Below are positions 6,280-31,605 of a stretch of 64,000 nucleotides of DNA, piece after piece (within the stretch, counting starts at the first letter, position 1; every line of letters starts with the position of its first letter). Source of the stretch: a virus; the IMG/VR virus record IMGVR_UViG_3300011972_000003, positions 1 through 64,000 of that record. One strand, written 5' to 3'. The position numbers were made by a program, and so were the translations under genes. The notes under the pieces were generated by a model that had not been told where the DNA came from, did not search any database, and worked only from the letters and a program-made list of their open reading frames with translations.

Positions 6280-6505
6280 ATTTAGTGTATGCAGGTTCTT
6301 AAGATGGGATGGATTCAACGTAGATAATTTTATTGAGGAGCTTAAGGGGGAGATAAAACAAGACTCCCTCAAGGTTTCCCCAAATGAGAGTGACCCTACG
6401 ATGATGGACTTAGAGGTTTCAATCCCGCCAGAACTTAGGCATACAGTAGAAAATATATTAAAGAAGTACACAAAAATATACACGTGGATCAATGAACAGC
6501 TATAA
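6266..6505 (+). CDS. hypothetical small protein (79 aa)
   Basis: Short ORF filling the gap between neighbouring genes, with overlapping stop and start codons on both sides. Confidence 0.3.
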   Translation: MEEHRFSVCRFLRWDGFNVDNFIEELKGEIKQDSLKVSPNESDPTMMDLEVSIPPELRHTVENILKKYTKIYTWINEQL

Positions 6506-8720
6506 TTTTTTCATAGAGAACAGACTCCCGGAAATATTAACATCTTACTATAACAGCCCATTAAATAAGAGAGGTTTTGAGGTGGTTAATATATCAGTCG
6601 TTCACCCAAAAGTAGAGTTATCAAGAGCAATAGAACTCGAGCAAACTTATAATTACGAACTTCTGCTAAGCTACACGAATAGAGAGACAGGAGAGATGCC
6701 AGAGCCTATTGTGATTGAAGTTCCTAAGATGGTTAACGATTCCTTTATTATCTTCGGGAAATACAAAACACCTACTTTAATGCTGGATAACGATAGAAAT
6801 GCTAGGTTTTATGAGACTCAGTTCGTTATTGATCCAGATAAGACCTTTAACTACGAAACAGGACTCTTCAAATATATAGACAGTGAGGGGAATGAAGTAG
6901 TGATTGATGTTAATGCTATAGAGGAGTTACCGGAAGAGGCTAGAAAGGTTGATAAGAGTATACTAAAGAAGATTGAAATTAAGTTTAACCTGGATAAGCC
7001 TATAAATGAACTAACTAAAGATCTACTCATTCAAGCTAAGGAGAGGTTCGCAGGTTATAATGACAAAGTCGAAGACCATATCCTAGACAAGAAGGTTTTA
7101 ACGGTTCAAGCTGGTTTAGTTAATTTCATAAAGAGTCACAAGAAAGAGATCTACACAAGAATAGCTTCAGATTTACCAAGGAGAGGGAAGATTTATGCTA
7201 GTGAGATGAACAAATATATCCGTAAGTTCTTTTCACATGGAGGTATGATCGATAATCCTTCTAAAGTAAACTCTCTGACATTCTCTGCGTTATCTAGAAG
7301 GATTAAACTTTCAGAGTACACAGAGTATAACAGAAGCTTAGTAGACATCATAGACCCAATTAGAACTCCAGAAAATGCCAATGCGAATATCGTGAATGAG
7401 CTTAATGTTTGTTCTGTTATAGATGAGGATGGTGGGATTTCAATAAGAGTTCACGAGTTAGATTTTAAACCAGTTGTCCTTTCGTATATTGATTATTTTG
7501 ATGCTTATATAATTGACAACCAGAGTGTAGACTACGTTAATAAGAAAATCAATCCTAAAGTTAAAGTAAGAAGGAGAGGAGAAGTAATTGGAGAGTATAA
7601 GTTATCTGAAGTGCCTAAACCGTGCTATATAGATGCTTCTGCTGATGATAAACTTTCTTATTCAACTAGAAGGATACCGATGATTAACTATACTGACTCA
7701 ATTAGGGTATCAATGGGAGGAAACATGAGTAACCAAGCTGTTGAACTTATAAACCCAGATGTACCAGCAGTTAGTTCAGGACATGATGATGGAGCTAAGT
7801 CTCACCCTTTAAATATCTATGCATTATCTTCAGGAGTAGTTGATTATAAGGATAGAAATGTAATTAAAATAAAGGATGAGAAGGGAAGGTCTGTTGAGTA
7901 TAGATCCCACTTAGTTAATTCTATGTATGACCTAAACGTTGTGGTAGATCCTAAGGTAGAAGTAGGTGATCATGTTAATATTGGGGATACGATCTTTGCA
8001 CCTAGGAATATAACCTCTGAGTTTAGATTAGGAAAGAACTGTAGAATAGCCTTCATGCTTCACGGTAATAACTATGAGGATGGGGTAATAATGGGTTCTC
8101 ACTTGATTCCTAAATTCGCTCACATTGCAGTTAAGGACTATATCTTCATTCTAAAACCTGAGTCTGAGCTTACTTCTATTATGGATCTAGGAAAGGCTGT
8201 AGAGGAAGATGAGCAGATACTTGGAGTTAATGAAAGGATGTCTACTGAGGATTTAGATTTCTTGGCTGGAGCTGTGGATTATGGTAGAGTAAGTAAGCTA
8301 AAGGGATTCTTCATGACGGAGGGTCTAAGAGTGCCTAAGGATTTTGGGAGGGGTTACTTTACAGATATTATAGTTCAGAAAGGGAATGTAGAATCAGATC
8401 CAAATACAGAGCAAGTTATTAATGAAGTATTTAAGAGGTATAAGGCAGCTAGAAAGGAGGTAGCAAATATTGGTGAAATTCCAGAGAGCTACTTAAACTT
8501 GCCAATGGAACAACCAGAACCTCCTCAAATAGATTACAAATACATGATTAAAGTTCGCTTATTACAGGTCAATGAACTCAAGGTAGGGAATAAGATAACA
8601 AATAGGTATGGAAGTAAAGGTCTATGCTCACAAATTATTCCTGAAGATGAGATGCCAAGAACAAAAGATGGGCAGTTGATTGATGTGATAATGAATGCGG
8701 ACAGCACCGTAAAGTCGACT
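6492..8720 (+). CDS. DNA-directed RNA polymerase beta-like subunit, exon 1
   Basis: EVPKMVNDSFIIFGKYKTPTLMLDNDRNARF resembles the beta N-terminal region [51 protein letters not shown] resembles GQNVLVAFMPWNGYNYEDS. The C-terminal NRYGSKGLCSQIIPEDEMPRTKDGQLIDVIMNADSTVKS resembles [36 protein letters not shown]. The reading frame then hits a stop while the homology continues in exon 2. Confidence 0.75.
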
Positions 8721-8974
8721 TGTTGCGGTGGGTAAACCTTGTGAATTGCTGGGATATCCTACATGTGGTGGTGAGGACAATCAGCAGCCCTTATGGGTTC
8801 AACGACTATCGAAACTGTAGTAAAGGAGTAGAGTACACTTAAGCGAGTGGAAGCGCAAGGATAGAGGGTTAAACCTTTATGTGATATAGTCTGAACGTCC
8901 TTAGAAATAGGGAGCTGGAGTAATTTCCGGGATAAGAAGTAGCGAGCTTATCTGAACATAATTGAGCAAGAAAG
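8721..8974 (+). ncRNA. group I self-splicing intron, no ORF, interrupting the RNAP beta gene (boundaries approximate, within about 10 nt)
   Basis: The coding homology of beta breaks at ..STVKST and resumes in frame at [11 protein letters not shown] (cf. MNIGQILETHLG). The intervening 254 nt contain P7/R-like GGGTTCAACGACTATCGAAA (8795..8814) and S-like GATATAGTCT (8883..8892). A U precedes the proposed 5' splice site and a G ends the intron. The element is homologous to the intron in the topoisomerase gene. Confidence 0.6.
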
Positions 8975-11634: not shown

Positions 11635-13133
11635 CATCTAACGCTCTATCTTCAACTTATGTATTATGTTCAAAGGTTACAAAGGATAACTATAAAACCA
11701 GCATAAAGAAAGTAGAAGAAGCGTATAATAAGAATAAAGATGTTTACTACCTGATAGAGTTTAAAGAAGGGAATAAGGTTCGTGAAGATGTACTTAGTTT
11801 GGAGGAGATATTTAAAAAGTACAAGTTGAAAGTGAAGTTGGAGTTTAAACCTTCTACCCTCGTATTCTTTAAACCAGATTATACACTTATCCAATCACCT
11901 AACTATGAATTACCGCTTACAAACCTAGCTCTTGTTAAGTTAATTGTTAAGGAGACTACGAAGAAAGAGGTAGAGTATTTTATAGAAGGTAAGGAGGTTG
12001 AATATGAACTCTTTAAGTGCCCTCTAAATATGACAATAGGGAAAACCAGACTCTTAACAACCTTTGATTTTGATACAGATTTAACTAAGGGAGTATCTAA
12101 GGGATCAGTTAACTCACTTGTTGTTAATAGAGGTCTACATATAAGAGAGATGGAGAATGCTTTAAAGGAAGGGCTTAGAGTGACTTATAATTTAGATGAT
12201 GTTTATGTTCAGTTTGTTTTGAAAGGACTTAACTTATCTATAATACTCTTAGCTAATGAAGTAGGGTTCTCATCTCAAACTAAGGAAAATCTCACTCAAA
12301 TAGATGGTTGGGATAAAAGTTGTAGAGAGAAGTTAATTGAAGAGGTTACTAAGTTTTTAAAGAAGAATAAGGCTGAGTTTGAAGAGCATATTGAGAGAGT
12401 TAAGGAGTTTACCGCCTCTATGAACAAACTTAAAAATATGGACTTCATTAAATCTAAGGTTATCCTCTCTTCTGATATTCGTAAAAGTAAAGGAGGTAAA
12501 GAGATTAGTAAGCTTAGGGATTGCAGCACCAGTAATCGAGCGGATGCAGAACTTTATATCGTAGAGGGAGATTCGGCAGCAGGTTCAATTACATCAGCGA
12601 GAGATTCTAAAGTGCATGGAGTTTATCCGCTCAGAGGTAAGGTGCTGAACTGCCAGAATAAGTCTTTAGAGCAAGTATTAGAAAACAAAGAGATAAGAGA
12701 TTTAATTAACGCTATAGGTGCAGGGATTAAAGGGTATGAACTAAAAGAGAAGCCGAGATTTGGAAAGATTATAGTGGCTACTGATGCTGATGATGACGGT
12801 TATTCTATTCAAGCTTTAGTTCTAGGAGTATTTGGAGAGTATATGCCGCACTTAATTGAGAAAGGATATGTTTACTGTTTAGTTCCACCTCTATATAAGC
12901 AAGAAGGGAAGTATTATTATGACGGAGAGGAGAAAGGATTAAATAGGAATAAGAAGTTCACTCGATATAAAGGGCTTGGTACAATGAACTCTGAAGATGT
13001 AGAAGAAACGTTAATTAAGAATAAGAGGCTGAAACAAGTTACTTTGGATGACCTAGATTATGCTAAAGAAATCCTCGGTACAACTTCAGCTAAGTATGAC
13101 CTAATGAAAGAAGCTGGGATAATTTATGGCTAA
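11635..13133 (+). CDS. type II topoisomerase subunit, exon 2 (transducer + Toprim)
   Basis: Toprim motifs YIVEGDSAAGS (cf. EGDSAGGS) and IIVATDADDDGYSIQ (cf. IMTDADVDGSHI). The listed ORF starts at TTG at 11799, but the frame is open from 11619. Confidence 0.7.
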
Positions 13134-14445
13134 GAAGAATAATAAAGTAGTAACCGAGTCTATTGGAGATATAGTTTCATTCGGGTATACAGAGTTTGGG
13201 AAATACATTAATACATCAAGAGTGTTTCCTAGGCTTCTCGATGGACTTAAACCTTCCTATAGACGTGGTATTTATGCATCTTATTTAGGAGGAAAGGATT
13301 ATGCAAAGTCAGCTGAGGTTTTAGGTAATATGATGAAGTTCCACCCTCACTCTACAGATGGGACGTATGAATCACTGGCAAAGTTTACGCTCTGTGGTAT
13401 TTTAGAAGGAGAAGGGAGTTTTGGTAGAGCTGATATTCTAGGAGATTCTGATGGTCCAGCTGCTGCTCGTTATACCGCTATTAAAGTATCAAAGAAACTC
13501 AGAGCGATGATAGAGCCAGTGTTAGACCTCGTCCCATGGCAAGATAGTGAGGTGAATGGAAATATAAAAGAACCGTCATACCTTCCTACACCATTTCCGT
13601 TATCCTTCTTAGTTGATAGGGTTTCTGGATTAGGGATTGGAGTTTCAGCTATCTTACCAACGTTTTCTATGGAGAGTATGTATGAAGCTTATATAACTAA
13701 TGACCCTAAGAAGCTGAAGTATAGAACTAAGGGACTTAAGATTATAGCAAAAGATTCAGACTTAGATGCACTATGGAAAACAGGGAAAGGATATCTAACT
13801 TACCAGTATGCCAAAATAACAAAGGGAGATAGGGAAGTTCTTATAGAGGGTGACCCAAGTAGATTTCCTATTCAGTTAGATAAAGGTGGTAAGGGAGATG
13901 ACAAACTATTTATGCAGTATAGAGAAGAGGGAAGAATATTAATTGACAACCTCTCCGACAAAACAAAACCAGGACTTCTAAGAGTTTACCTTTCACCGGG
14001 AACTAGAGGAGTGGATATAGACTGGCTGCATAAATACCTAACAGAAAAAGCTACCCACAAGGAAACGTATATGATTAATGTTACTGATGGAGAGACTGTT
14101 AGAACTATAGGGATTAGAGAGTGGATAGATATAACTTACAATAATTACATAAACCTACTGAACTTAAACCGGGATAACAAATTAAAGAGCCTAGAGTTTA
14201 GTAAGAAAGTTTACCTAGCTATGCCTGAAGTGGTTAAAGTATTTCTAAAGGATACGAGTGTCACAAATGAGCAGCTGGCAAAGAAGACCAAAGTAGATTT
14301 AGAGATTATTAAAGTTATTATGTCTAAGCCTATAGGTACACTGAGAAAGACTGATTCAGAAGCTAAGATTAAAGAAATAGAAAAAGAAATAAAAGCACTG
14401 AAGAAGTTTAAAGCGGAAGAATTTATCAAAGAACACATATTTTAA
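13126..14445 (+). CDS. type II topoisomerase DNA breakage-reunion subunit (GyrA / T4 gp52-like)
   Basis: SRVFPRLLDGLKPSYRRGIY resembles RALPDVRDGLKPVHRRVLY. HPHSTDGTYESLAKFT...GSFGRADILGDSDGPAAARYTAIKVSK resembles [40 protein letters not shown], including the catalytic Tyr region. Confidence 0.7.
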   Translation: MAKKNNKVVTESIGDIVSFGYTEFGKYINTSRVFPRLLDGLKPSYRRGIYASYLGGKDYAKSAEVLGNMMKFHPHSTDGTYESLAKFTLCGILEGEGSFGRADILGDSDGPAAARYTAIKVSKKLRAMIEPVLDLVPWQDSEVNGNIKEPSYLPTPFPLSFLVDRVSGLGIGVSAILPTFSMESMYEAYITNDPKKLKYRTKGLKIIAKDSDLDALWKTGKGYLTYQYAKITKGDREVLIEGDPSRFPIQLDKGGKGDDKLFMQYREEGRILIDNLSDKTKPGLLRVYLSPGTRGVDIDWLHKYLTEKATHKETYMINVTDGETVRTIGIREWIDITYNNYINLLNLNRDNKLKSLEFSKKVYLAMPEVVKVFLKDTSVTNEQLAKKTKVDLEIIKVIMSKPIGTLRKTDSEAKIKEIEKEIKALKKFKAEEFIKEHIF

Positions 14446-19138: not shown

Positions 19139-20137
19139 ATGATTTTAAGTATCGACTGTGGGTACGGACACTTTAAGTACTGTATCTACGATGAAAAAAC
19201 AAGTAAAATTATTAAGTTAGATAAAGAGGTTACAGGTGTGATAGAGGTGCCAGAAGGAGATTCATCCATGGTTACCTCTGTTGCAACCTACCACCACTTC
19301 GATGGAAAAAGGTATTTAGTGGGTGAGCTGGCGACAAAACTAGACCGGCTCCCTATTGATACTTTAACTTACGAAGGATTCAAGGAGGTAGGACCAATAC
19401 TAATCTCTTATCTACTTAACAAATTCCAATCAGAAGGTATTGAAAAGATCGCTTTGGGGTTGACCCCCGTGATCTGGGATAAGCGTGAAGATTACAAAAG
19501 CTATATCTTAGAGAAACTTAATTTGCCTTCCGAAAAGATAGATATTCATGTTCAAGGTCTTTCAGGTCACGCTACTTATTCACAGTACGGACTAGATATA
19601 AACCCTGATGGAAAAATCTCTATGGAAGCTAAATCTGCTAACTATTTTGGACTGGACGTTGGGTTTAATACAATAGACACTTACCTTGTTTTAAATAACT
19701 CTCTCCTCGATTATGGGATTAAAGGGTTTGCAAATAAAGGTGTAGTTCTTGTAGCAAATAAAATTAAAACCCATATCTTTGAACACCTTGGAATCTCTAT
19801 AAATGATGTTGAAGCTAAGGAAGTGGTAACGATGGGAGGTTATAAGAAGAGAGGTAAGTTCCACGATTTATCAGACAAGATCACTGAGTTTATCGTAGAG
19901 TACCTAACTTCAACCTTCAATATGTTAGAGGAGGAGTATGGAGATCAGTTTAACAAAGTAGATAATATTCTTCTATTTGGTGGAGGAGCTGAGATAATTA
20001 AGATCTACATGGAGAAGTCAGACGTTATTAGAAAAACAATAGCTGACCTTTATGGAGATGAGTTCCTATTACTACCAAAAGATAAAGCAGAGTATTACAA
20101 CACAATCGGATATTCACTATTAAGCAGCAAGAAATAA
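19139..20137 (+). CDS. actin-like ATPase (ParM/Alp family)
   Basis: Phosphate-1 motif ILSIDCGYGHFKY. Phosphate-2 motif YFGLDVGFNTIDTYLV. Adenosine motif ILLFGGGAEII. C-terminal connect-2 motif IGYSLL. Confidence 0.6.
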   Translation: MILSIDCGYGHFKYCIYDEKTSKIIKLDKEVTGVIEVPEGDSSMVTSVATYHHFDGKRYLVGELATKLDRLPIDTLTYEGFKEVGPILISYLLNKFQSEGIEKIALGLTPVIWDKREDYKSYILEKLNLPSEKIDIHVQGLSGHATYSQYGLDINPDGKISMEAKSANYFGLDVGFNTIDTYLVLNNSLLDYGIKGFANKGVVLVANKIKTHIFEHLGISINDVEAKEVVTMGGYKKRGKFHDLSDKITEFIVEYLTSTFNMLEEEYGDQFNKVDNILLFGGGAEIIKIYMEKSDVIRKTIADLYGDEFLLLPKDKAEYYNTIGYSLLSSKK

Positions 20138-20138
20138 G

Positions 20139-20702
20139 ATGAAGACAGTAACATTTGTACACACCTCAGATGAATTAGTTTTAGAGGCAGTAAAGAAAGC
20201 ACTATCAGAAGGGTATGGTAAGGAGTTTGACAATATACTAATCACATCCGAAGAACTACCTGAACCTGAAGAGAATTTCCTAAAGACCCAGTGCATCCAG
20301 TTTCAAGTTAAGAGAGATGTAGAGGCTATGATTTCAGCTGATACTATTATAATTGACACAAACGACTGGAACCCTTATACTTGGTTTACTTTAGGAATGG
20401 CTTATAGAGTGGCTTGGCTTAAGAATAGAAAAGAGCTGATTACTGTTGGAGAGCATAGCATAAGTGAAATCCAAAAGTACCTAGAAGAGTGGAATGATGT
20501 ATATAAGAACTGGGTAAATGGAAATCCTGTAGAGTTTAAGTTTGATGTTAATAGAGCTTCAGATGTTCTTGCTTGGGTTAGACTTGGATACCTTTGGGGA
20601 GATGTAAATAATAACTACCATATTGTATCTAAACTTGTAGGAGACCCTCAGCCTAGTGACTATATTATTAAGTTCTTATCAACCGATGTAGCTTATGAAT
20701 AA
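20139..20702 (+). CDS. hypothetical protein (187 aa)
   Basis: ORF immediately downstream of the actin-like gene. A weak Rossmann-like pattern is present (ADTIIIDTNDW..TLGMAY). Confidence 0.45.
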   Translation: MKTVTFVHTSDELVLEAVKKALSEGYGKEFDNILITSEELPEPEENFLKTQCIQFQVKRDVEAMISADTIIIDTNDWNPYTWFTLGMAYRVAWLKNRKELITVGEHSISEIQKYLEEWNDVYKNWVNGNPVEFKFDVNRASDVLAWVRLGYLWGDVNNNYHIVSKLVGDPQPSDYIIKFLSTDVAYE

Positions 20703-21534
20703 TATGTTTGAGTTTCTGATTAAAAAGTTACATGTCATTAAGTTAGTTGTTTTAGCTCTCATTATTGCAGTAGTGTGGTATGGGTATAGGAGTATGGTGA
20801 GAGTAGAGCCTAACTATGAAGGTGTAATGATGTCTAACTTTGGAAGGAACGGGAAATCTGATTTTAATGTGGTAACAGGGAGACAATGGACTCTACTGCC
20901 TGGAACAAGATTATACCAAGTGCCTATGTTTGAGACTTCAGGGGATCCAGATCAGGTTACTATTTCAGCTAAAGATGCAGGAGTATTTACAGTTGACCCT
21001 TCTTACCAGTATCAGCCAATTAGAGGTAGAGGTGTAGATATTGTATTTAGTTATAAGCATCTTGGAGTGGAGGACCCTAAAGTTATGCTGGATAATGTAG
21101 AGGTCTCAATCTTAAACAAACTCGTAGTAAATGCCTATAGAGAAGAAGCTAGAGAGTATACTACAGATGGGCTGATGAATAACCTGAATGAGTTTGAAAA
21201 GAAAGTAGAGAATAGACTTAAGAAGGACTTTGAGGCTAAACACTTTCAACTAACCAATCTAACTTCTGGACTTAAACCTCCTAAATCAATGGAAGACGCT
21301 ATCGAAAGGAGAAACAACATGATCCTAGAGAAAGAGAAAGTTCAGAACGAGTTGGAGGTTTCTAAAATGAATCTGGAGAAAGCTAGGATAGAAGCTGAAA
21401 CAAATAAGGTTAAATCCAAAGGCCTAGATGAAAAGCTACTACAAGAAAAATGGATAGACGCTATTAGAGAGACTGAAAATAAGGTGATCATTACAGACGG
21501 AAAAGTCCCTGCACCTATAATTATAAAAGAGTAA
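20695..21534 (+). CDS. SPFH/Band-7 (prohibitin/HflK-like) membrane protein
   Basis: N-terminal TM segment LVVLALIIAVVWYGY. The SPFH-like core runs from GVMMSNFGR to HFQLTNLTSGLKPPKSMEDAIERRNN, which resembles GITLLDVNFQAARPPEEVKAAFDDAI. A C-terminal coiled coil follows. Confidence 0.6.
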   Translation: MNNMFEFLIKKLHVIKLVVLALIIAVVWYGYRSMVRVEPNYEGVMMSNFGRNGKSDFNVVTGRQWTLLPGTRLYQVPMFETSGDPDQVTISAKDAGVFTVDPSYQYQPIRGRGVDIVFSYKHLGVEDPKVMLDNVEVSILNKLVVNAYREEAREYTTDGLMNNLNEFEKKVENRLKKDFEAKHFQLTNLTSGLKPPKSMEDAIERRNNMILEKEKVQNELEVSKMNLEKARIEAETNKVKSKGLDEKLLQEKWIDAIRETENKVIITDGKVPAPIIIKE

Positions 21535-21542
21535 AGAAAAAG

Positions 21543-21728
21543 ATGAACAACCAGACTAAAATATATCTCCTACTGTTTGCCATAATCCTGAATATACTTC
21601 TCATTGGTTACGGTTTTAATTATCGGCCAGCAGTAGGAATGGTTGTCTTCGTTTTAGCAATATTAATCTGGAGTTATTTCCCTTATGACAAATATTTTAA
21701 CGAATGGAACAAACGGAAAGAAGAATAG
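21543..21728 (+). CDS. small two-TM membrane protein (61 aa)
   Basis: Two hydrophobic helices. It overlaps the next gene. Confidence 0.4.
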   Translation: MNNQTKIYLLLFAIILNILLIGYGFNYRPAVGMVVFVLAILIWSYFPYDKYFNEWNKRKEE

Positions 21729-22768
21729 TTGATCATTACGAGGATATAAAGTTTGACTTACACTACCCTCACTACTTCAGCTATAGTTACGTCGGTACCC
21801 CCATTACAGTTAGGTATAAGGAGGGACAGTTAATTAAATCCTCACCTATGGACAAAGAACTCACAGAAAGTTTACCTAAAGAAGTCAATCCCGCTATTAC
21901 AAGGTTAAAGTGTATGTTAGTGGAAAATAGGCTTGTTACAGGAGATTTTAGGGTTATTGTCTATGATATATCTGTGAACTCAAAATTAGGGGTTAAATAC
22001 GGATTCCTTGAGAGCCTAAGACCTATGAGTAATGATAAGTTTTGTGTAGGTGAAATATTTGGATTCCTCACTGACACACTTATAAAACCCACCATAGTTA
22101 AGATAAGAGATTGGGAAGGATTTGAAGCTCGTATAGATGGGTTATGGCACTTTGGAGAGGAAGAGTTTATTTACAGTCTTAAGGAGAGAAAACTATTAGA
22201 TGTAGAAGTAGAAGGACTTAGCGTAACTCTCCAGTACGACCACGAGAAAGATATGCTTATTCCTCACTTAAATATAGCTGGGGATAGGATTGGTGGTAAG
22301 TGGACTAGATTGGTAGAAGTTAAAGCGAATGACGTAGCTAAGAAAGGAGTAACCAAAGGGTGTAAGCTTATAGTAGATTGTAACGCTGACATTGTGAACA
22401 TACTAGAAAAGGGTGAACCTGAAGATATAGTATGTAAATGTGGAACTAAGCTTGGTAAAGAAGATGTTATAGGTAATTATTTCAAGTGTAGTAATGAAGA
22501 GTGTCAGCAAAGTTGTAACTCTCTTATGTCGATGTATATGGGGAGAACAATAGACTCTGAGTACTTCTTTAAGCTTCTAAGGCTGCCTAACTTTAAGTTC
22601 AAAACCCGAGTAAAAGAAACTTGGTGCCTCTCAGATCAATTAGCTATAAAAGATTTCGAGAGTTACCTTAGATATTTGAAACAAGGAACGAACTTAACAA
22701 AGGCACAAGAGAAAGCAATAGAAATAAACGCACTTAGATTGTATAACTTGCTAAATGATGATGATTAA
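21704..22768 (+). CDS. hypothetical protein with C-terminal Cys-rich zinc-ribbon-like motif
   Basis: CKCGTKLGK...CSNEECQQSC. Confidence 0.45.
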   Translation: MEQTERRIVDHYEDIKFDLHYPHYFSYSYVGTPITVRYKEGQLIKSSPMDKELTESLPKEVNPAITRLKCMLVENRLVTGDFRVIVYDISVNSKLGVKYGFLESLRPMSNDKFCVGEIFGFLTDTLIKPTIVKIRDWEGFEARIDGLWHFGEEEFIYSLKERKLLDVEVEGLSVTLQYDHEKDMLIPHLNIAGDRIGGKWTRLVEVKANDVAKKGVTKGCKLIVDCNADIVNILEKGEPEDIVCKCGTKLGKEDVIGNYFKCSNEECQQSCNSLMSMYMGRTIDSEYFFKLLRLPNFKFKTRVKETWCLSDQLAIKDFESYLRYLKQGTNLTKAQEKAIEINALRLYNLLNDDD

Positions 22769-23267
22769 ATTACCAGACATAGAACTTCCAGATAAGAATA
22801 TAGAACCGAGGGAGCTTGTAGATTACGCAATACACAAAGGTTTTAAAGTAGAGGTAGATGAGGATTCTTTTGAGGTTAAGTTAGTGTGTAATAAGGTAAC
22901 AGAAGTATATCTCCTAAACCCAATAATTAATAGATACAGCAAGATATATGTAGAGGGAGATGGGAAGCAGAGAGTTAGGTTTGCAAGTTTGTTTTACCTA
23001 GTAGATGCTCCTGTTATAGTCCTGTCTCATATGCTGTCTATTTTAATCTTAGGGATCTCTATCTTCTTATCAGGTAATATAGCAGGATTTAGTTTGATAG
23101 GGGTGGTGGTGATACTAGTTACTTTGGCAGATTACGGCTGGAGAAACCACAAGATGACTAGGGTAACTAAACCTCTATGGATCTATAAAAATTTGATGAT
23201 AAGTATTTCCCTGACATTAATTTGGATGAGTATACTTTTTAGAGCTGTAACAATAATAGAAATGTGA
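22755..23267 (+). CDS. membrane protein (C-terminal multi-TM)
   Basis: Hydrophobic segments LSHMLSILILGISIFLSG and LIGVVVILVTLADY. Confidence 0.45.
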   Translation: MMMIKLPDIELPDKNIEPRELVDYAIHKGFKVEVDEDSFEVKLVCNKVTEVYLLNPIINRYSKIYVEGDGKQRVRFASLFYLVDAPVIVLSHMLSILILGISIFLSGNIAGFSLIGVVVILVTLADYGWRNHKMTRVTKPLWIYKNLMISISLTLIWMSILFRAVTIIEM

Positions 23268-24674: not shown

Positions 24675-24689
24675 ATTAAAGACAAAAAT

Positions 24690-24748
24690 AGGGAGCAGCC
24701 CGGGGTTAAATTTCCTCAGGTTGCTCCCTTTAACTTTATTTTTTTTTT
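24690..24748. terminator. bidirectional intrinsic terminator between convergent gene blocks
   Basis: Hairpin AGGGAGCAgcc-[loop]-ggTTGCTCCCT (24690..24729) followed by TTAACTTTATTTTTTTTTT. It sits between the last plus-strand gene (ends 24674) and the endolysin stop (24753). Confidence 0.5.
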
Positions 24749-24752
24749 CGCC

Positions 24753-25235
24753 TTAGATGCTCACGTACGGCGTCTTTTGAACTTTATATTTGCTTTGTAG
24801 AGATGAAATAGTCTGTCCAAAAGTCTTCTGAAAGTGCGGCATATCTCTGAATCTCCAGTTTCCTCCCCATTCCCATCCATACTTCTTAAATATAGCAACA
24901 ATCTCTAGCCAATCAGCCACACCATCTTTATCTGAATCCATATTAGCGTCCCAACTTACCTTTGTTCCGTCTTTTGATAGTAAGCAGATATCGATAGCAA
25001 GACCGTAGTTATGATATGATTGACCTCCTCTTGCATTAGTTACGATAGATCCTTTTACAGTTCTGCCTTGTGCATAAAGTTTGTCTTGTTCTGCGTGCGT
25101 TCTAAGTGTATGAGTAAATCTTAAAGTGTAGTCACCAGTAAGTTTAGCTGATGCTTCTTCTAAGATTTGTTTTGCTTCTGTTCTCAATTTAGGATGTAGA
25201 AGCTCTATTCTTTGTAGTGATACTTTGTCTAACAT
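24753..25235 (-). CDS. endolysin, peptidase M15 (VanY / L-alanyl-D-glutamate peptidase-like)
   Basis: SYHNYGLAIDI matches SxHxxGxAxD, and DMPHFQ matches the zinc-ligand motifs of the LAS/M15 family. Confidence 0.75.
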   Translation of the reverse strand: MLDKVSLQRIELLHPKLRTEAKQILEEASAKLTGDYTLRFTHTLRTHAEQDKLYAQGRTVKGSIVTNARGGQSYHNYGLAIDICLLSKDGTKVSWDANMDSDKDGVADWLEIVAIFKKYGWEWGGNWRFRDMPHFQKTFGQTISSLQSKYKVQKTPYVSI

Positions 25236-25238
25236 TGA

Positions 25239-25820
25239 TTATAGGTATTTTTTGAATTTAGTCCTTATAACCCAGATACTTCCAGCAATAAGGATAAGTA
25301 TAATAAGAATCCACCAAGGGAAAGACCGATTATCTGCATCTACCTTCTTGACTCGCTCGTGGGATTTATTTTCCGTATCTTTCTTAATTTTAACTTCTCC
25401 TTGAGCCTTCTTATTTACTTTATTTAGGCTGTCTATTTTTCTTTCTTCTTTTGTCTCTACTGCTTTATCTGTGGTTTTATTAGAGTTTACATTAGAGATA
25501 GTTCCATTCTTTACTTTACCTTTATAGAGCTTATCATTAACATATACTTCAAATTCAGCTTCCTCATTCTCGTTAATTGGAGTAAAGTAGAATTCGTCCG
25601 TGTTAATAAGTTCTTTTAGGTTCACCACTTCTTTCTTCTCCTCTACAACTTTATTTTTAACTACTGCTGCAGAGTCTACTTTCATCGAGGATACTGAATC
25701 AACCTTTTCTACGATTTCTTCTTTCTTCTCCTCCTTAAGCACCTTACGAGTTCCACATGATGTTAGGGCTAAAAGTAAGGCTACCATTAAACTAAGATAA
25801 GTACACTTTTTCATTGTCAA
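25239..25820 (-). CDS. candidate unimolecular spanin (N-terminal lipoprotein signal + C-terminal TMD)
   Basis: Lipobox MTMKKCTYLSLMVALLLALTSC. C-terminal TM segment FPWWILIILILIAGSIWVI. Directly upstream of the endolysin. Confidence 0.5.
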   Translation of the reverse strand: MTMKKCTYLSLMVALLLALTSCGTRKVLKEEKKEEIVEKVDSVSSMKVDSAAVVKNKVVEEKKEVVNLKELINTDEFYFTPINENEEAEFEVYVNDKLYKGKVKNGTISNVNSNKTTDKAVETKEERKIDSLNKVNKKAQGEVKIKKDTENKSHERVKKVDADNRSFPWWILIILILIAGSIWVIRTKFKKYL

Positions 25821-26295
25821 CTATTATAAATTTTCGTATATGACCTAAATAATACTCCTCTAAGACTAAAATGTATCTAGAGTGTGTAGCTCCTGCAGTA
25901 AGATTATCTACCCCTTGTTTATGCTGATCTGGTAAATTGCTCTGTCTGTGGTCGTCTTTTTTAGGTATTTTATTTTTCACCATCTCCAGAGCCTTAAGAA
26001 ACTTTGAGAAATCTTGGTTAGCCAGCTTAGTTAGTTTCTGTTCTATTCCGGCTACGATTTTCTTTTGTTTGTAATGCTCCTTTTTGATTTCCTTGTTTAG
26101 TGAGTCGATCTTTGCTTGGTTATCTAGAATCTGCAAAACATCGTCTCTTACTTCCTTAGGTACTATTAGAGAGTCTCCATCTTTCATCACTAATACTACC
26201 TTGTCACCTTCTTTAACTTCTAATTCTTTGCTCGTATCTTGTGCACTGCTAGTAAACGGTAAACACATAAGTAGAGCCATTATATTTTTCCACAT
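25792..26295 (-). CDS. secreted or periplasmic protein (167 aa)
   Basis: Cleavable signal peptide MWKNIMALLMCLPFTSSAQD. Confidence 0.45.
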   Translation of the reverse strand: MWKNIMALLMCLPFTSSAQDTSKELEVKEGDKVVLVMKDGDSLIVPKEVRDDVLQILDNQAKIDSLNKEIKKEHYKQKKIVAGIEQKLTKLANQDFSKFLKALEMVKNKIPKKDDHRQSNLPDQHKQGVDNLTAGATHSRYILVLEEYYLGHIRKFIIVDNEKVYLS

Positions 26296-26299
26296 AAGC

Positions 26300-26710
26300 C
26301 TATTTAATTAATTTATTCACGTTAGTATCCACCTGTTCGTATTGATCTGTTATTTCTTTACTTTTCTCGAGTCCACCTTGTACATTCTCTATTTGGGTTG
26401 TTTGAGCTTGTTGTAGTCGGTGGATAAGTTTGATGTAGACCTCTAGCTCCTCGGCACAATCCTTCTTATCTAATTCTGCTATATGTTTATCCTTCTCTTT
26501 AAGTCTGTCTTCGTAGGTACCTTTGCCCCAAACTATAATACCTATGAGACAGATTACGAGAACAACTAGAAGCCACTTTTGAATATTGTCCGGAAGATCG
26601 ATACCACCTAAACCTTGATTGCTTAGTTCACCACCAGAAGATCTTTCATCTCCGTTTTCCTCTGGTATTTGGTATTCTTCTTCCATCATGTCGTTTTTAT
26701 ATTCTTTCAT
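26300..26710 (-). CDS. single-TM protein with periplasmic coiled coil (i-spanin-like or holin-associated)
   Basis: Acidic N-terminus. TM segment WLLVVLVICLIGIIVW. Coiled-coil C-terminal region. Confidence 0.4.
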   Translation of the reverse strand: MKEYKNDMMEEEYQIPEENGDERSSGGELSNQGLGGIDLPDNIQKWLLVVLVICLIGIIVWGKGTYEDRLKEKDKHIAELDKKDCAEELEVYIKLIHRLQQAQTTQIENVQGGLEKSKEITDQYEQVDTNVNKLIK

Positions 26711-26713
26711 TTC

Positions 26714-27271
26714 CTAATCTCTTACTTCTTTAGATTCATTTTCCTCACATATATTCTTTACGTCTAATCCTGCAACTCCTATGACTAAACTACCAGCTTT
26801 TCGTTTCCACTTATAGGTTACCTTCCCCTCCATCTCGTCTGTAAAAATCATATAATCCCTGTCAGAGCTTAGGAGTAATTTATCGTGAGCCACATACTTC
26901 TTTGCTGCCTCTTCCCCAAAAAGGTCAACATCAGATTTGTCTATTACGTCTGTTACGCCATACTCATGCTCAAAAGATTTATTAACGTAGATGTAGTAAC
27001 CTTGTTTATCCTTAAGCCAGTAAGAAAAGGGTGAGTCCCAAGATGAAGATTCTAAGAGGGTTAATAGTTTCTCCTTCTCAGACATCTCTTCCCTTAGACG
27101 TTCTACCTTATTGTTGAGCTTAGTGATATCGTGTCGTTGCATATTGATGATGTTGATATACTCGTTACTCTTACTTTGTTTAGTCTGTATGAGGTATTTA
27201 AATATATAACCTAAGAGTATACCTCCCCCTCCCGTTATTAAAATATTCACTAAGTCCATTTCGTTATTCAT
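26714..27271 (-). CDS. membrane protein with N-terminal TMD and large C-terminal domain (holin candidate, T4 T-like topology)
   Basis: TM segment LVNILITGGGGILLGYIFKYLI at residues about 8–30. Located in the lysis cassette. Confidence 0.35.
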   Translation of the reverse strand: MNNEMDLVNILITGGGGILLGYIFKYLIQTKQSKSNEYINIINMQRHDITKLNNKVERLREEMSEKEKLLTLLESSSWDSPFSYWLKDKQGYYIYVNKSFEHEYGVTDVIDKSDVDLFGEEAAKKYVAHDKLLLSSDRDYMIFTDEMEGKVTYKWKRKAGSLVIGVAGLDVKNICEENESKEVRD

Positions 27272-27324
27272 ATTTGGTTAGACAGGAGAGAGATTTTTGT
27301 TCTCCCTCTCGCTGTGCTTGTTGT

Positions 27325-30300
27325 TTATATTAGATCATCGTATTGGTTATCTAGTGGTCTACTTAGTTGTCTAAATCTAGCACCAATATTACTATCTCTA
27401 AAACTTGCATCTCCTCGACCAATTGGCCAAGAAATTCTTAAGTCGGCATTACTATATTGATTAGAGTCAGACCTAGGTGTACCAATCATAGTGAACGATC
27501 CATTAGGGTTAACTACATAAATACCTCCAAGAACTATATTTTCTTCGAAGTACTGAACAGGGGTTGAATTTAATCTCCACTCATTTACGTTAACAGTCTT
27601 GTAGTAACCACCGCCACCACCGATTCTATGGGATGGGTCTTTATATCCACCTCGGCCTGAACCTATTTCATCATACTCAGGTCGGTGAGGGGTTAAGCCA
27701 TCATCTTCACTATATCCTTCCCAAACTTTCTCCCAATCAACCCATACATGAGCTCGATGCAGAATATTCGTCAACTCTTCTAGGTAATCCGTACTAGATG
27801 TAATATCTTTAGTTAACTTCAGCTTACCGGTCTGAGGATCTCTTGTTAGGAACTTCTTGAATGCTTTAACGTGATCAAATTCCTCATCTTTCCAAGGCCA
27901 TCTTCCACTAATATTTAAGTAAGTGTCGTATTGAGCCCAATGTTGAGACGGCAATTTTAGAGGATTCGGAGTTCTACTGTAGTCATTTTCGTAATCCTTT
28001 AATGCGTTTTGGTAAGTAGTATAATCACTTCCGCCATTTATTCCAGAGTAGCTTAAGTCACCAGCTATTCTAGGGATTTCATCAGCTTCAACTGCAAAGT
28101 CTAAGAACTGTTTAAATCCAGACACATTTCTAAGTATCCACAGTTTTCCTGAACTCACCACTTGATTAGTTAATGGATTACTTAGAACAATCTCTGCCTT
28201 ACCATTCACTCTCTCATTAGTATCTGGATAACTCAAGTAAATAAGTCTATCATTAGGTCTAGATCCATTAATAACTCCCGCTATCTTACCTAAATAAGTT
28301 CCATCAGGCTGCTTAGTTAAAACTACATCCTTGAGGGTAGTTCTATTAGTTAAGTTAGCTAATTTAACTCCTACATCAGTTGTACCAGATATTGCATTAG
28401 TATTTGGAAGCGAAATTACATTCATCACGAACTTAATAGAGTCTGAATTAAACGGTGTGGATGGTTTAAATTTGAGAACTAAGTCCATTGAAGTAGTAAG
28501 AACTCTATTATCAAACAAGAACCAAGAACCTCTAGTACCTACTCCACTTCTGTTGGCTGGGACAGGTCTTACTTTTGTATCACCACCACCATAATGAATT
28601 TCTCTGTAAGTTAATCCGTAAGATCTTTCTGCAGGAATAAGGTCATATCTGAAGTCTCTCATATTAGTTAAGTCTAAGTATATTATATCCGTATACCTAA
28701 CATTCTTAACTCCATTAACTTCAACAGTATACATACCCCTAATTGCTAAGTTATTTGGATTAGATCTTCTAGTGATTAAGTAGTTCATGGTCATATCCTT
28801 AAGCTTAATACCTCCATCACTGCCGTATCTAAGGCTCCAAGGTACTAAAGCAGGGTTTTTACCATTCCACTGATTATCGAGATTGTTTCGGTCATCCATG
28901 TGAATAATCTCAAACCCAACGTCTTTAATTAATCCATTAGGGTCAACTGAATCATCATAAGATAATCCAAATCTAACTAAATTATTTTCCCCAATAACTT
29001 TAAATAGCGCGTTTCTATCTCTCCATTCCTGTTCATTTACCTTACCATTCGGCATTATATATCCCATCATGTTGGTTTGAAGTTGCTCCCACTCTTCTGA
29101 TGAACTTCCTGCACTTAAGTCATACGTCCACTCGGTCTTTTTAACGTCTTCATTGCTTGAGAATACTTTGAATCTCGCTTTAAATATCTTCGTAGCTCCA
29201 AAGAACAATAGACCTGCAGCATCCTCATTACCCATCAAGTTAACCAAGCTAATAACAAGTACCGCATTAGAATGTATCTTCAATTTAAACGACTTAATAG
29301 CAAGTAGAGGTACATTATTATAGTAAACATCTCCTCCTTGTGCATCTTTAGCTCTAGCTCTTACATCAAATCTAATCTCCTCAATATCTTTAGCATTATT
29401 AAGTTGAGCTGCTAATCCTACATAGTCAACTTTAACTTTATCTCCCTCAATCGTTATAAATGGTGCAAACTTTTGAGAGTCAGCTGGAAGGTTAACTATA
29501 GAATACTGAATCTTACTCTTATCAACTGCTCCCTGTACTTTTGGTTTTAACTCGTAAAGAACTGGAGCTGTAGGGTAAGCTTTGTACTCTTTATATGCTT
29601 TAGTGTAGTTTATATATTTATCTTCAACTGAGCTACTATCTTCCCAACTAATAGATTTAAACAAGTCCTTAAGGTTAATATTAGTTGTATAAGGGTCTGA
29701 CCAAGAGTTACTATCAAAGCCTATCTGGTCTGTATATATCCCTACTAATCTAATTGCTTGGTCTCCTGATAACTTCTTAAGGTCTACCAGCGAACTAATC
29801 CTCATCTTAATTGGAGTACCTACAGGATAAGCTTTATTAACTTGTAGCATCTCCTTAAGCTCTTTCGGTACTGTAGTAAACTTAACATGACTCGGAGTAA
29901 ACTTAAGATGTGCCCCTACGTAAAGAGTGTTAGGAGTTATTGTCATCTCGTAGTTATGGTTATTAGAGTCGTAGTTAAGGTCTATGGTATGCGCTACGTC
30001 TAAGATTTCAGGTTTTAAGATTCGTTTAAGGGTCACCTCTGTAGTTACAACGTTTGATGGTAATTCCTCTCCGTTATAGTCAGCAAAACCTTGAACCTTA
30101 ACCTCCATTGTCTCATTATCCTTAGCCTCTATATCCTGTTCAATGTGGTAGATTTTAGGGTTTTGAGCATCTTGAGTGAATCTTGGTGCACCTACTGCTG
30201 TCGCTCCAGTTACCACTAGTTTTTGCTTAAGTGTACCTGAATTGAATCTAATAGTCCCTGTTAAAGTTACGTTCTTATTAGGGTCAGTTGTTCTTCTTCC

Positions 30301-31605
30301 AATTACGAGTTTATCCATCTTAAGTAATGGTGGTATTCCTGCTAAAGCTACTGCATTCTTATCGATAACTATAGTGATACGCCCTCTCTTCTCTGAGTTT
30401 GCATTATATAGTTTAGAGTTAGGCTCATCTGTTGTATCTTTAAATATCGCAGGGAGCTTAGACTTATCGATTGTAGCTATTATATTTGTTGCATCTACTG
30501 TTACATTTATAGCGGTCTCAGGGATTTCTTTCCACTTACTATCATCCTCAGAGACAAACGCATTAGTGATAGAAGATATACCATGCCATTTTGAACCTAA
30601 GTTATGCGGAATCGTTACTGTAGTGTCTGAGAAGTTATTGATAGTGTAGATTCTAGTTATACTTCTATTATCCAAAACCTCCATCAATACCTCGTAGAAC
30701 TCCCTTAAAGATTTTGGTGTAACTACTGTCCCGTTTGTTCTTCTAAAAATTGGTATATCATTCTGGTTAACTGTACTCCAATCTGAGAAGTCCCCTATAT
30801 CCAGTTTCTTTAAATTCAGTACTCGCCCTTGTGTTGCAGCTAAGGCATCTCTAGAGTTTGTACTATTAAGGTGATCTACTACATTCCCAAACGACTTAAT
30901 AGAGGTAGTGAACGTAGCCATCATTTTCTCCATAATCCCTCTATAATCGTAAGGGTTACCACCTAAAACTTTCATATGGACTAGCTTGTTGGAATCCTCA
31001 AAGTAAGTCCCATTTCGATAAGCAGGTAAATTTTGAGCTACAGTGTCTAAGTAAGTATCTAGTGTAACTATAGTTGTAAGCTGCTCATCATCATAAGTTA
31101 TAGCAGCTCTATCCTCAGGTAGTAAGAATTTAGAGACGTCAACTGTTGGAGTATAGTACCCTTCCATTACAGCATCAGGAATATTAGCGTAAATACAAAT
31201 CTTAGCTACACTCCTTTCTGTAAATAGTTTACCTCCTGTTAATTCTTTGGATAGGAAAGCTGGTACATAATTACTAACTCCACTAGCTTTATATTTTATC
31301 AGAAACCCAACGAAGGACTTATTATAGAATCGATTAATGAACTCTAATTTGTAGTAGTCTCTGTCAATTCTATAAGCTGTAACTATATCTCCCGTCTCTC
31401 TAATTATATCGTTAAAAGACCCAGAAACTAACCTAAACTCATTCTCTACTTGTGCTGGTGTAGTTGATGAAGTTAAAGGTGTTCTGTTGGATGTTATATA
31501 GTCTACTTCAAGCCCTGTTAGTTTTATTTGGTTACCACTCTCCCTGTCTCGTTTAAATTGTAAGAAGGAAGAGGATGGTATTAATTTAATTTTATACTCG
31601 GTCAT
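27325..31605 (-). CDS. large distal tail or tail-fibre protein (1426 aa)
   Basis: Its size and its position at the distal end of the tail module. No catalytic motif seen. Confidence 0.5.
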   Translation of the reverse strand: MTEYKIKLIPSSSFLQFKRDRESGNQIKLTGLEVDYITSNRTPLTSSTTPAQVENEFRLVSGSFNDIIRETGDIVTAYRIDRDYYKLEFINRFYNKSFVGFLIKYKASGVSNYVPAFLSKELTGGKLFTERSVAKICIYANIPDAVMEGYYTPTVDVSKFLLPEDRAAITYDDEQLTTIVTLDTYLDTVAQNLPAYRNGTYFEDSNKLVHMKVLGGNPYDYRGIMEKMMATFTTSIKSFGNVVDHLNSTNSRDALAATQGRVLNLKKLDIGDFSDWSTVNQNDIPIFRRTNGTVVTPKSLREFYEVLMEVLDNRSITRIYTINNFSDTTVTIPHNLGSKWHGISSITNAFVSEDDSKWKEIPETAINVTVDATNIIATIDKSKLPAIFKDTTDEPNSKLYNANSEKRGRITIVIDKNAVALAGIPPLLKMDKLVIGRRTTDPNKNVTLTGTIRFNSGTLKQKLVVTGATAVGAPRFTQDAQNPKIYHIEQDIEAKDNETMEVKVQGFADYNGEELPSNVVTTEVTLKRILKPEILDVAHTIDLNYDSNNHNYEMTITPNTLYVGAHLKFTPSHVKFTTVPKELKEMLQVNKAYPVGTPIKMRISSLVDLKKLSGDQAIRLVGIYTDQIGFDSNSWSDPYTTNINLKDLFKSISWEDSSSVEDKYINYTKAYKEYKAYPTAPVLYELKPKVQGAVDKSKIQYSIVNLPADSQKFAPFITIEGDKVKVDYVGLAAQLNNAKDIEEIRFDVRARAKDAQGGDVYYNNVPLLAIKSFKLKIHSNAVLVISLVNLMGNEDAAGLLFFGATKIFKARFKVFSSNEDVKKTEWTYDLSAGSSSEEWEQLQTNMMGYIMPNGKVNEQEWRDRNALFKVIGENNLVRFGLSYDDSVDPNGLIKDVGFEIIHMDDRNNLDNQWNGKNPALVPWSLRYGSDGGIKLKDMTMNYLITRRSNPNNLAIRGMYTVEVNGVKNVRYTDIIYLDLTNMRDFRYDLIPAERSYGLTYREIHYGGGDTKVRPVPANRSGVGTRGSWFLFDNRVLTTSMDLVLKFKPSTPFNSDSIKFVMNVISLPNTNAISGTTDVGVKLANLTNRTTLKDVVLTKQPDGTYLGKIAGVINGSRPNDRLIYLSYPDTNERVNGKAEIVLSNPLTNQVVSSGKLWILRNVSGFKQFLDFAVEADEIPRIAGDLSYSGINGGSDYTTYQNALKDYENDYSRTPNPLKLPSQHWAQYDTYLNISGRWPWKDEEFDHVKAFKKFLTRDPQTGKLKLTKDITSSTDYLEELTNILHRAHVWVDWEKVWEGYSEDDGLTPHRPEYDEIGSGRGGYKDPSHRIGGGGGYYKTVNVNEWRLNSTPVQYFEENIVLGGIYVVNPNGSFTMIGTPRSDSNQYSNADLRISWPIGRGDASFRDSNIGARFRQLSRPLDNQYDDLI

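Follow-up and report, generated by a model that had tools for sequence, protein, structure and literature searches.

The DNA analysed here, positions 1 to 64,000 of the IMG/VR virus record IMGVR_UViG_3300011972_000003, is referred to as the window, and this text is concerned with a group of five genes within it that resembles a phage lysis cassette. Base composition indicates a strand switch near 24.7 kb, to the right of which every gene lies on the minus strand. An earlier note on this sequence had proposed an M15 peptidase endolysin and a candidate unimolecular spanin (u-spanin) in this region, and all five open reading frames (ORFs) of the proposed cassette do exist on the minus strand. The genes and features of the locus are the following (aa, amino acids):

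31605..27325, minus strand: tail-fibre-like gene, 1426 aa, directly upstream of the cassette; Phage_fiber_rpt match (1.4e-5) below the cut-off
27271/27259..26714, minus strand: p185, 185 aa (mechanical start) or 181 aa (ATG 27259)
26710..26300, minus strand: p136, 136 aa
26295..25792, minus strand: p167, 167 aa
25820/25814..25239, minus strand: p191, 193 aa (mechanical TTG start) or 191 aa (ATG start)
25235..24753, minus strand: M15 endolysin, 160 aa, last gene of the operon
24681..24729, unstranded: bidirectional intrinsic-terminator-like hairpin, with the stem-loop at 24690-24729, flanked by a minus-strand U-run (24681-24689) and, opposite, by an A-run

Within the cassette the intergenic gaps amount to 3-4 nucleotides (nt), with 3 nt between p191 and the endolysin gene, while p167 shares 23 nt with p191. 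The hairpin occupies the 78-nt spacer between the cassette and the convergent plus-strand genes and folds with -26.1 kcal/mol (z = -3.8; none of 200 shuffled sequences was equally stable). It looks like a bidirectional terminator, and was missed at 24690-24729 by a simple terminator scanner owing to its long loop. Because of the tight spacing, the fibre gene upstream and the hairpin, the five genes appear to form the 3'-terminal part of a late operon. A sigma-70 promoter scan returned fewer sites than were obtained in shuffled sequences, the consensus being ill-suited to Bacteroidota promoters.

The whole five-gene block, including the 23-nt overlap, is syntenic in a diverged relative, L001, where the order is fibre gene, genes for proteins of 175, 141, 169 and 196 aa, and M15 endolysin; the protein identities to the cassette are 64, 71, 59, 54 and 89%, respectively. 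A tail protein followed by lysis genes is an order common to the window, Riemerella phage RAP44 and Flavobacterium phage 11b. In IMG/VR, 15 near-identical loci were found on contigs of up to 184.7-185.6 kb, and when 25 kb of the window were compared with GenBank phages by megablast, no match came up. These sequence data point to a roughly 185-kb phage with a Bacteroidota host, the host being suggested by the affinities of the spanin family and of the endolysin described below.

Signal peptides and topologies were called by rule-based tests throughout, namely a PROSITE PS51257-type lipobox rule and Kyte-Doolittle hydropathy. For p191, the gene directly upstream of the endolysin, the earlier note had given a length of 193 aa, a lipobox LTSC and a transmembrane domain (TMD) at the C-terminus. 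The protein is present, but its length is 191 aa, as all homologues start at ATG 25814, two codons into the 193-aa TTG ORF. Both sequence features were recovered. The signal MKKCTYLSLMVALLLALTS, followed by C20, is recognised by the PS51257-type rule, with K/R among the first 7 residues, the LTSC lipobox, and the Cys at position 20, which is invariant in the homologues. Residues 1-19 constitute the signal, ending with ALTS before C20 (Cys codon at 25755-25757); the predicted periplasmic part spans residues 21-166 (146 residues) and does not contain a single Cys. The TMD, WWILIILILIAGSIWVI, covers approximately residues 167-185 (nt 25260-25316), reaches a mean hydropathy of 2.65 over 17 residues and is followed by the basic tail RTKFKKYL. 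Such a segment fits a predicted stop-transfer anchor with the tail in the cytoplasm. In the AlphaFold model, whose overall predicted local distance difference test score (pLDDT) is 49, helices are found at both ends and three short strands at 86-108; residues 168-187 are helical with pLDDT values of up to 89 and represent the best-scored part of the model. The K/E-rich periplasmic region is, as far as the model indicates, probably disordered or helical. In all three minus-strand frames of 25200-27330, p191 is the only ORF that carries a lipobox.

The protein thus combines the sequence and position features of u-spanins in the sense of Kongari et al. 2018: a lipobox with its Cys, a C-terminal TMD, adjacency to an endolysin gene and a Cys-free periplasmic domain. 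The last point is in good agreement with the catalogue of these proteins, where a periplasmic Cys is absent in all 58 u-spanins (PMC6139136).

A word-indexed search yielded 29 homologues of p191, none with a functional name, most of them 79-95% and three about 55% identical, located on contigs of up to 175-194 kb. Down to 54% identity Cys20, the residues G-T-R-K, FPWW and the TMD are conserved, and the homologues share the central block DEFYFTPI.E..AEFEV.VNDK.YKGKVKNG.ISN. When 1.84 billion representative proteins were searched with a profile, 35 matches at E<1e-3 were obtained, all of 154-246 aa and, except for two fragments of close relatives, nearly full-length. The members of this family are built to a common plan: after the lipoprotein signal comes the invariant Cys with G-[ST]-R-K behind it, then a region rich in S, T, K, E and N, the motif G-F-P-W-W, the TMD and a basic tail; the central motif reads x-P-[IV]-D..K…G…N, also seen as xPID..K..G. 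Among 59 members checked, the lipobox was called in 52, most failures being evident start-codon miscalls, and the C-terminal TMD in 55; 51 of the 52 members with a lipobox call have no periplasmic Cys. The family is not covered by any Pfam, NCBIfam or PHROG entry, and a DUF4969 label on one homologue in the nr database could not be reproduced by a Pfam search. None of 50,697 GenBank phages was matched in tblastn searches with p191 and with P0039, a distant family member; the low-complexity filter and divergence are probable explanations. Isolated phages could be connected to the family only by means of its hidden Markov model (HMM), run on all ORFs of the fetched loci.

We observe that motifs are conserved at both ends of the periplasmic region, C-G-[ST]-R-K directly at the lipidation site (25740-25757 in the window) and G-F-P-W-W before the TMD (25311-25325). 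Conservation at both membrane interfaces suggests a role beyond anchoring; sorting elements or juxtamembrane fusion elements are possibilities that the sequences would allow.

The family HMM matched three proteins which are listed as singleton u-spanin families by Kongari et al. 2018 in SpaninDB, those of phages 11b (154 aa), RAP44 (192 aa) and FCL-2 (127 aa) (PMC6139136); the catalogued lengths match 11b gp49, RAP44 gp03 and FCL-2 gp19. Besides the full-length HMM, a periplasm-only HMM was used, from the build of which the window clade was excluded, and each protein was compared with 500 shuffles of itself:

p191: periplasm HMM 38.0 bits, best shuffle 4.9, significant
11b gp49 (154 aa, directly after the GH19 endolysin): full-length HMM 64 bits; periplasm HMM 34.7 bits, best shuffle 8.4, significant
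RAP44 gp03 and its PJA1 orthologue (192 aa, between holin and M15 endolysin): full-length HMM 59 bits; periplasm HMM (gp03) 10.0 bits, best shuffle 8.5, marginal
FCL-2 gp19 (127 aa): full-length HMM 27 bits; periplasm HMM 12.8 bits, best shuffle 12.8, not significant
T1 gp11 (unrelated control of the same architecture): full-length HMM 20.7 bits; periplasm HMM 2.3 bits, best shuffle 10.9, none

An hhalign comparison of the window clade with 11b gp49 gave a probability of 96.7% (E 3.4e-10) over 76 columns including the periplasmic motif. Judged by these profiles, p191 is a true homologue of the 11b-type u-spanin: it has both the homology within the periplasmic region and the motifs C-G-[ST]-R-K and xPI(D/N) of the gp49 type. 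Like p191, 11b gp49 (YP_112525) carries SCG[ST]RKV after the lipobox and FYxxPI(D/N)…K…(D/N)(G/K)K.YK in the periplasmic part, shows the same architecture, adjoins an endolysin and lies downstream of a large tail protein. It differs in being shorter (154 versus 191 aa, with 117 versus 146 periplasmic residues), in missing the FPWW before the TMD and in its position after a GH19 endolysin, whereas p191 precedes an M15 endolysin; relative to 11b, the cassette of the window is larger by two genes, p136 and p167. At the SpaninDB threshold of 40% identity, p191 would stand as a family separate from 11b gp49.

RAP44 gp03 (YP_007003601) is closer to p191 in size, with 192 aa and a periplasmic span of 149 residues, and the gene order of tail protein, small genes, u-spanin and M15 endolysin is the same as in the window. 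The endolysins share about 67% nucleotide identity. Directly upstream of its spanin gene RAP44 has a holin gene (phrog_14914, 1.7e-82), where the window has p167, p136 and p185. On the basis of the sequence comparisons, p191 probably falls into a larger group from Bacteroidota phages, of which RAP44 gp03 is also a member. Annotations as unimolecular spanins exist in further flavobacterial phages as well (PMC8776804).

As a side observation, the GenBank entry OQ791282.1 ("Shigella phage Henu10") encodes a u-spanin that is 100% identical to that of the Riemerella phages, together with the same endolysin, and looks like a Riemerella phage deposited under a wrong host name.

The earlier note had called the candidate T1 gp11-type. 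This holds for the architecture but does not extend to the sequence: hhalign of the window clade against T1 gp11 gave a probability of 2.6%, and the periplasm HMM score lies below that of the best shuffle. By these measures the two proteins have a common architecture, not a common ancestry, and p191 does not belong to the T1 gp11 sequence family, which has 28 members in SpaninDB, where 40% identity or more over 40% or more of the length is required (PMC6139136). What p191 and T1 gp11 have in common is a Cys-free periplasmic domain and a place in a lysis cassette with an endolysin neighbour (PMC6139136). T1 gp11 is a protein of 133 aa with a beta-rich periplasmic domain of 85 residues, in contrast to the 146 K/E-rich residues and the short predicted beta segment of p191, and it works with a signal-arrest-release (SAR) endolysin and a pinholin, while the endolysin of the window is predicted to be cytoplasmic.

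The association of the family with endolysins was surveyed in 12 contexts: the window, L001, 11b, RAP44, FCL-2, P0031, P0032, P0047, P0055, P0037, P0040 and P0038. In 10 of these the family gene lies beside or near an endolysin gene, the enzymes belonging to four unrelated classes, and often after a holin gene. The following gene orders were found besides those of the window and L001:

P0031: Phage_holin_4_1, Amidase_2, family member
P0032: holin_4_1, M15_4, family member, integrase
P0047: holin (phrog_14914), GH108 with PG_binding_3, family member
P0055: M15_4, family member; prophage in an NCBI genome
P0037: GH19 endolysin about 1.1 kb upstream of the family member
RAP44: holin, family member, M15 endolysin
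11b: GH19 endolysin, family member

A relative of P0055 was found in a Bacteroidota metagenome-assembled genome. The family member is usually the last gene of the cassette, which is the position expected of a spanin.

The assignment of the gene at 24753-25235 to an M15 peptidase endolysin was confirmed by Pfam, PHROG and structure-database matches. The protein matches PF13539 (Peptidase_M15_4) with 2.4e-18 and 66.9 bits (cut-off 25), VanY with 5e-9 and four PHROG endolysin families, down to 4.6e-36. The nearest solved structures are the L-alanyl-D-glutamate peptidase Ply500 (2VO9, 1.5e-26) and LysB4 (4.9e-25); the zinc-site motifs HNYG.A.D and PHF align with Ply500, and H75-x6-D82 and H134 are present. 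With a score above the curated threshold and H-x6-D … H in place, the enzyme belongs to the M15 (M15_4/VanY) class of zinc peptidases and is probably an L-alanoyl-D-glutamate endopeptidase. The catalytic M15/VanY domain of Ply500 (Listeria phage A500, PDB 2VO9) aligns over about 97 residues; compared with Ply500, the enzyme of the window is a single-domain protein of 160 aa without a cell-wall-binding domain. The absence of such a domain is usual in endolysins for Gram-negative hosts. At the DNA level the closest relatives are the endolysins of Riemerella phages, with the identity given above. The protein has neither a hydrophobic N-terminus nor a signal or SAR sequence, and it is therefore most likely a cytoplasmic, holin-dependent endolysin.

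Three small genes separate p191 from the fibre gene. The nearest, p167, is the signal-peptide protein recognised by the earlier note: its signal MWKNIMALLMCLPFTSSA, with the cleavage site between TSSA and QD, resembles a signal peptidase I type, and we predict a secreted, periplasmic protein. It is conserved in L001, including the overlap with p191. For p167 no match was obtained in Pfam, PHROG, NCBIfam or PDB, and no relatives were detectable outside the clade. The protein was also considered as an outer-membrane spanin subunit (o-spanin) and rejected, as its conserved Cys at position 11 has a Met at -1 and fails the lipobox rule.

The gene p136 encodes a bitopic protein with an acidic N-terminus of 45 residues, a TMD at 46-61 and a charged helical C-terminal domain with a conserved Cys85. 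The earlier note had described a single-TM protein with a coiled coil; the single TMD stands, but the coiled coil does not reach significance, 38 of 300 shuffles having scored as well in a crude heptad test. Among homologues of 71-96% identity the TMD and its flanks are near-invariant, with 14 of the 16 TMD positions identical and the other two occupied by I or V. By inspection of the sequence, the charges (acidic N-terminus, more K/R on the C-terminal side of the TMD) favour an orientation with the N-terminus out and the C-terminus in. The combination of one TMD, a charged helical domain with a conserved Cys and weak Rz-like PHROG matches is reminiscent of lambda Rz/Rz1, from which p136 differs by the missing o-spanin gene (none was found in the minus-strand frames scanned for lipoboxes), the long acidic N-terminus, the opposite topology by the positive-inside rule and the near-invariant TMD. 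In sequence terms p136 qualifies as either an inner-membrane spanin-like (i-spanin-like) protein or a holin candidate.

The first gene of the cassette, p185, most likely starts at ATG 27259, which gives 181 aa, and corresponds to the protein for which an N-terminal TMD had been noted. We find a two-residue N-terminus, a single weakly hydrophobic, Gly-rich TMD (approximately residues 3-24), a helix with heptad repeats and, at the C-terminus, a PAS-like domain. The lysines after the TMD favour an N-out/C-in orientation, and the heptad periodicity at residues 29-75 was matched by only 1 of 300 shuffles. The PAS matches of the C-terminal domain are below threshold. In a Foldseek search with the p185 model (pLDDT 55), the top PDB matches are all PAS domains (E about 2e-3), and neither the T4 holin T nor RI was found. 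PDB sequence searches with p167 and with the profiles of p136 and p185 returned nothing meaningful. Homologues of p185 are confined to this phage clade. In architecture and position p185 resembles 11b gp47, whose N-terminal TMD is likewise Gly-rich, which also contains a basic stretch and a long coiled coil, and whose gene overlaps the start of the endolysin gene; hhalign of p185 against gp47, which takes the holin position in 11b, gave no homology. We regard p185 as a candidate holin or lysis regulator. A function of its Gly-rich TMD as a SAR domain, as in the T4 antiholin RI, was considered and rejected, because the charges favour N-out/C-in.

The architecture and position of both p185 and p136 are compatible with a holin, and neither matches a Pfam, PHROG or NCBIfam holin family. 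Each of them, and to the same degree, may be the holin, which for either one taken singly is unlikely; that the holin gene lies elsewhere in the roughly 185-kb genome falls somewhat short of an even chance. Bitopic proteins with an N-terminal TMD followed by a long coiled coil or a globular domain occur at or near the holin position in other cassettes of the family, at L011 27215-27652 (11b gp47), L016 1985-2596 and L007 2547-3287, where no multi-TMD holin is recognisable. Such proteins may constitute an undescribed holin or lysis-regulator type in Bacteroidota phages.

Implementing these observations, we consider it likely that the region is the late lysis operon of a Bacteroidota phage, and that p191 is its unimolecular spanin, as the earlier note had proposed. 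This interpretation is carried by the architecture of p191, its conservation, the homology to 11b gp49, the occurrence of the family beside four endolysin classes and the five-gene synteny with L001. Several observations weigh against it. The only u-spanin for which complementation data exist is T1 gp11 (PMC6139136), and this only validated representative is not homologous to p191, so that the role of the p191 family as u-spanins is a predicted one. The architecture alone supplies part of the full-length HMM score, for which the value of T1 gp11 has to be taken as the baseline, and in the periplasm-only comparison RAP44 gp03 is marginal and FCL-2 gp19 not distinguishable from its shuffles. The structure model of p191 is poor, and its three short strands in a K/E-rich region contrast with the beta-rich gp11. 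No endolysin was seen in P0040 and P0038, which are two of the 12 contexts and both short contigs. A match to a Pfam, PHROG or NCBIfam holin was found neither in the cassette nor among the small membrane ORFs of the 64-kb window. Finally, all nine p136 homologues weakly match Rz-like i-spanin PHROGs (five families, best E 6e-4), and an i-spanin would be redundant with a u-spanin.

This last observation is the starting point of a rather improbable explanation, according to which p136 would be a genuine i-spanin, its TMD being N-in and its periplasmic helical domain dimerised through Cys85, and would form a multi-protein envelope-spanning complex with p191 and perhaps p167. The PHROG matches span the TMD and the C-terminal domain, the latter contains one conserved Cys in keeping with the near-universal periplasmic Cys of two-component spanins (PMC6139136), and p136, p167 and p191 are adjacent, translationally coupled and co-conserved. 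Yet the matches are individually insignificant, as is the heptad test; no o-spanin-type ORF is embedded in, overlaps or follows p136, and p191 has its own TMD. The p191 relatives in the loci of RAP44, P0031, P0032, P0047 and P0055 do without an i-spanin-like neighbour. The acidic N-terminus and the K/R residues on the C-terminal side disfavour the N-in/C-out orientation that an i-spanin needs, and its near-invariance sets the TMD apart from spanin anchors, to which no functional significance other than anchoring is ascribed (PMC6139136). A broader version is a non-canonical lysis system of more than three parts, in which p191, p136 and p167 would act together and p185 would serve as a PAS-domain holin or lysis-timing sensor that might couple hole formation to the energy or redox state of the cell. 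We deem this unlikely, if marginally less so than the i-spanin explanation, and a multi-part system with a PAS-domain lysis protein finds little positive support in our data.

Two further explanations concern p191 itself. It could be a superinfection-exclusion or receptor-masking lipoprotein like T5 Llp, its adjacency to the endolysin being incidental, and the cassette indeed lies directly downstream of the 1426-aa tail-fibre-like gene. Phage lipoproteins encoded beside receptor-binding genes act in exclusion, as in the case of T5 Llp and T1 Cor. We consider this highly improbable, as the family occurs near four endolysin classes in RAP44, PJA1, 11b, FCL-2 and six metagenomic or prophage contexts, and several members come last after holin and endolysin with no fibre gene adjoining. 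Moreover, the conserved C-terminal TMD with its basic tail is a defining trait of u-spanins (PMC6139136) and not typical of exclusion lipoproteins. The least credible explanation in our view is that GFPWW, the helix and the basic tail form a sorting signal of exosortase or rhombosortase type that is cleaved off, which would leave the mature protein held by its lipid only. A short conserved motif right before a terminal TMD and a basic cluster is the usual form of such signals, and the C-terminal segment of several family members matches the NCBIfam models PEF-CTERM, GlyGly-CTERM and Loki-CTERM (E 0.01-0.1). All these matches stay below the curated cut-offs, however, no sortase-like gene was found in the cassette or in the other loci examined, and motif, TMD and tail recur in phage lysis cassettes of many hosts, which is easier to reconcile with a self-sufficient anchor than with a host-specific sorting enzyme.

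If p191 is a u-spanin, its processing, sorting, topology and fusion activity can be predicted as follows. The M15 endolysin would accumulate in the cytoplasm and, having no export signal, would have to reach the wall through the holin lesion; the likeliest proteins to form the lesion would be p185, with its canonical first position and its architecture similar to 11b gp47, or p136, with its near-invariant TMD. The u-spanin would be exported by Sec, lipidated at Cys20 and cleaved by signal peptidase II; its C-terminal helix would stop the transfer and remain as an inner-membrane anchor, from which the basic tail would reach into the cytoplasm. The lipidated N-terminus would be carried to the outer membrane; Lol components are present in Bacteroidota (PMC11885536). 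In this phylum an acidic lipoprotein export signal (LES), K-(D/E)2 or SDDDD, flips lipoproteins to the cell surface (PMC5080379). No acidic LES motif is found in p191, where the residues after the Cys are basic (G-T-R-K), and the protein should therefore face the periplasm. Its 146-residue linker would thread the peptidoglycan mesh across the periplasm. Once the endolysin has degraded the wall, p191 would be free to collapse or oligomerise and to disrupt the outer membrane, probably by fusion with the inner membrane, which would complete lysis; a collapse and fusion model of this kind has been proposed for gp11 (PMC6139136). The product of p167 might act as a periplasmic accessory protein.

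From a biological point of view, p191 adds a diverged new member to a kind of u-spanin that is known from computation, an expected component in the expected place. The analysis provides a well-founded annotation for a gene that is called hypothetical in every source, in widespread, human-associated phages of roughly 185 kb, and it joins p191 and about 30 metagenomic proteins with the 11b u-spanin to one profile-detectable family with motifs at both membrane ends. The links to the RAP44 and FCL-2 u-spanins, which are catalogued as unrelated singletons, are marginal; the three singletons and the metagenomic proteins may nevertheless form one Bacteroidota-wide superfamily, and in that case the motifs C-G-[ST]-R-K and G-F-P-W-W would be functional elements of the fusion mechanism. 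In any case they are obvious targets for mutagenesis in a u-spanin class of unstudied mechanism. Should the bitopic proteins at the holin position, one of them PAS-like, be confirmed in such a role, the holins or lysis regulators of Bacteroidota phages would gain a further type. None of the findings on the cassette would surprise a specialist in phage lysis, and the cassette is largely ordinary.

Some observations were made outside the cassette. In the minus-strand region 27325-64000, 9 of 10 large, presumably structural proteins have no PHROG match at E<=1e-5, and hardly any part of the virion module is annotated in this phage group. Part of this region is a gene for a 987-aa protein (44612-47575, minus strand), the C-terminal half of which is similar to PHROGs of tail fibres and transglycosylases (8.9e-44 and 8.3e-28); its probable role is that of a virion-associated peptidoglycan hydrolase for entry, separate from the M15 endolysin. 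On the plus strand, 22755-23267 encodes a 170-aa protein, conserved in L001, whose N-terminal half is soluble and whose C-terminal half contains three hydrophobic helices, and 21543-21728 encodes a 61-aa protein with two TMDs; both were tried as holin candidates, and no family match was obtained for either. The 61-aa gene directly follows that of an SPFH/Band_7-like membrane protein (20695-21534, plus strand; phrog_200, 1.7e-31; Band_7 in L001), a pair that recalls SPFH-NfeD. Further plus-strand genes at 2690-5812, 6492-8735, 11799-14445 and 19139-20137 encode multisubunit-RNA-polymerase beta-like proteins, a split topoisomerase II and an actin-like partition protein of the ParM/Alp7A type, and L001 carries Alp7A/MreB-like Pfam matches. 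This set of polymerase, topoisomerase and partition genes recalls jumbo phages with their own transcription and segregation machinery.

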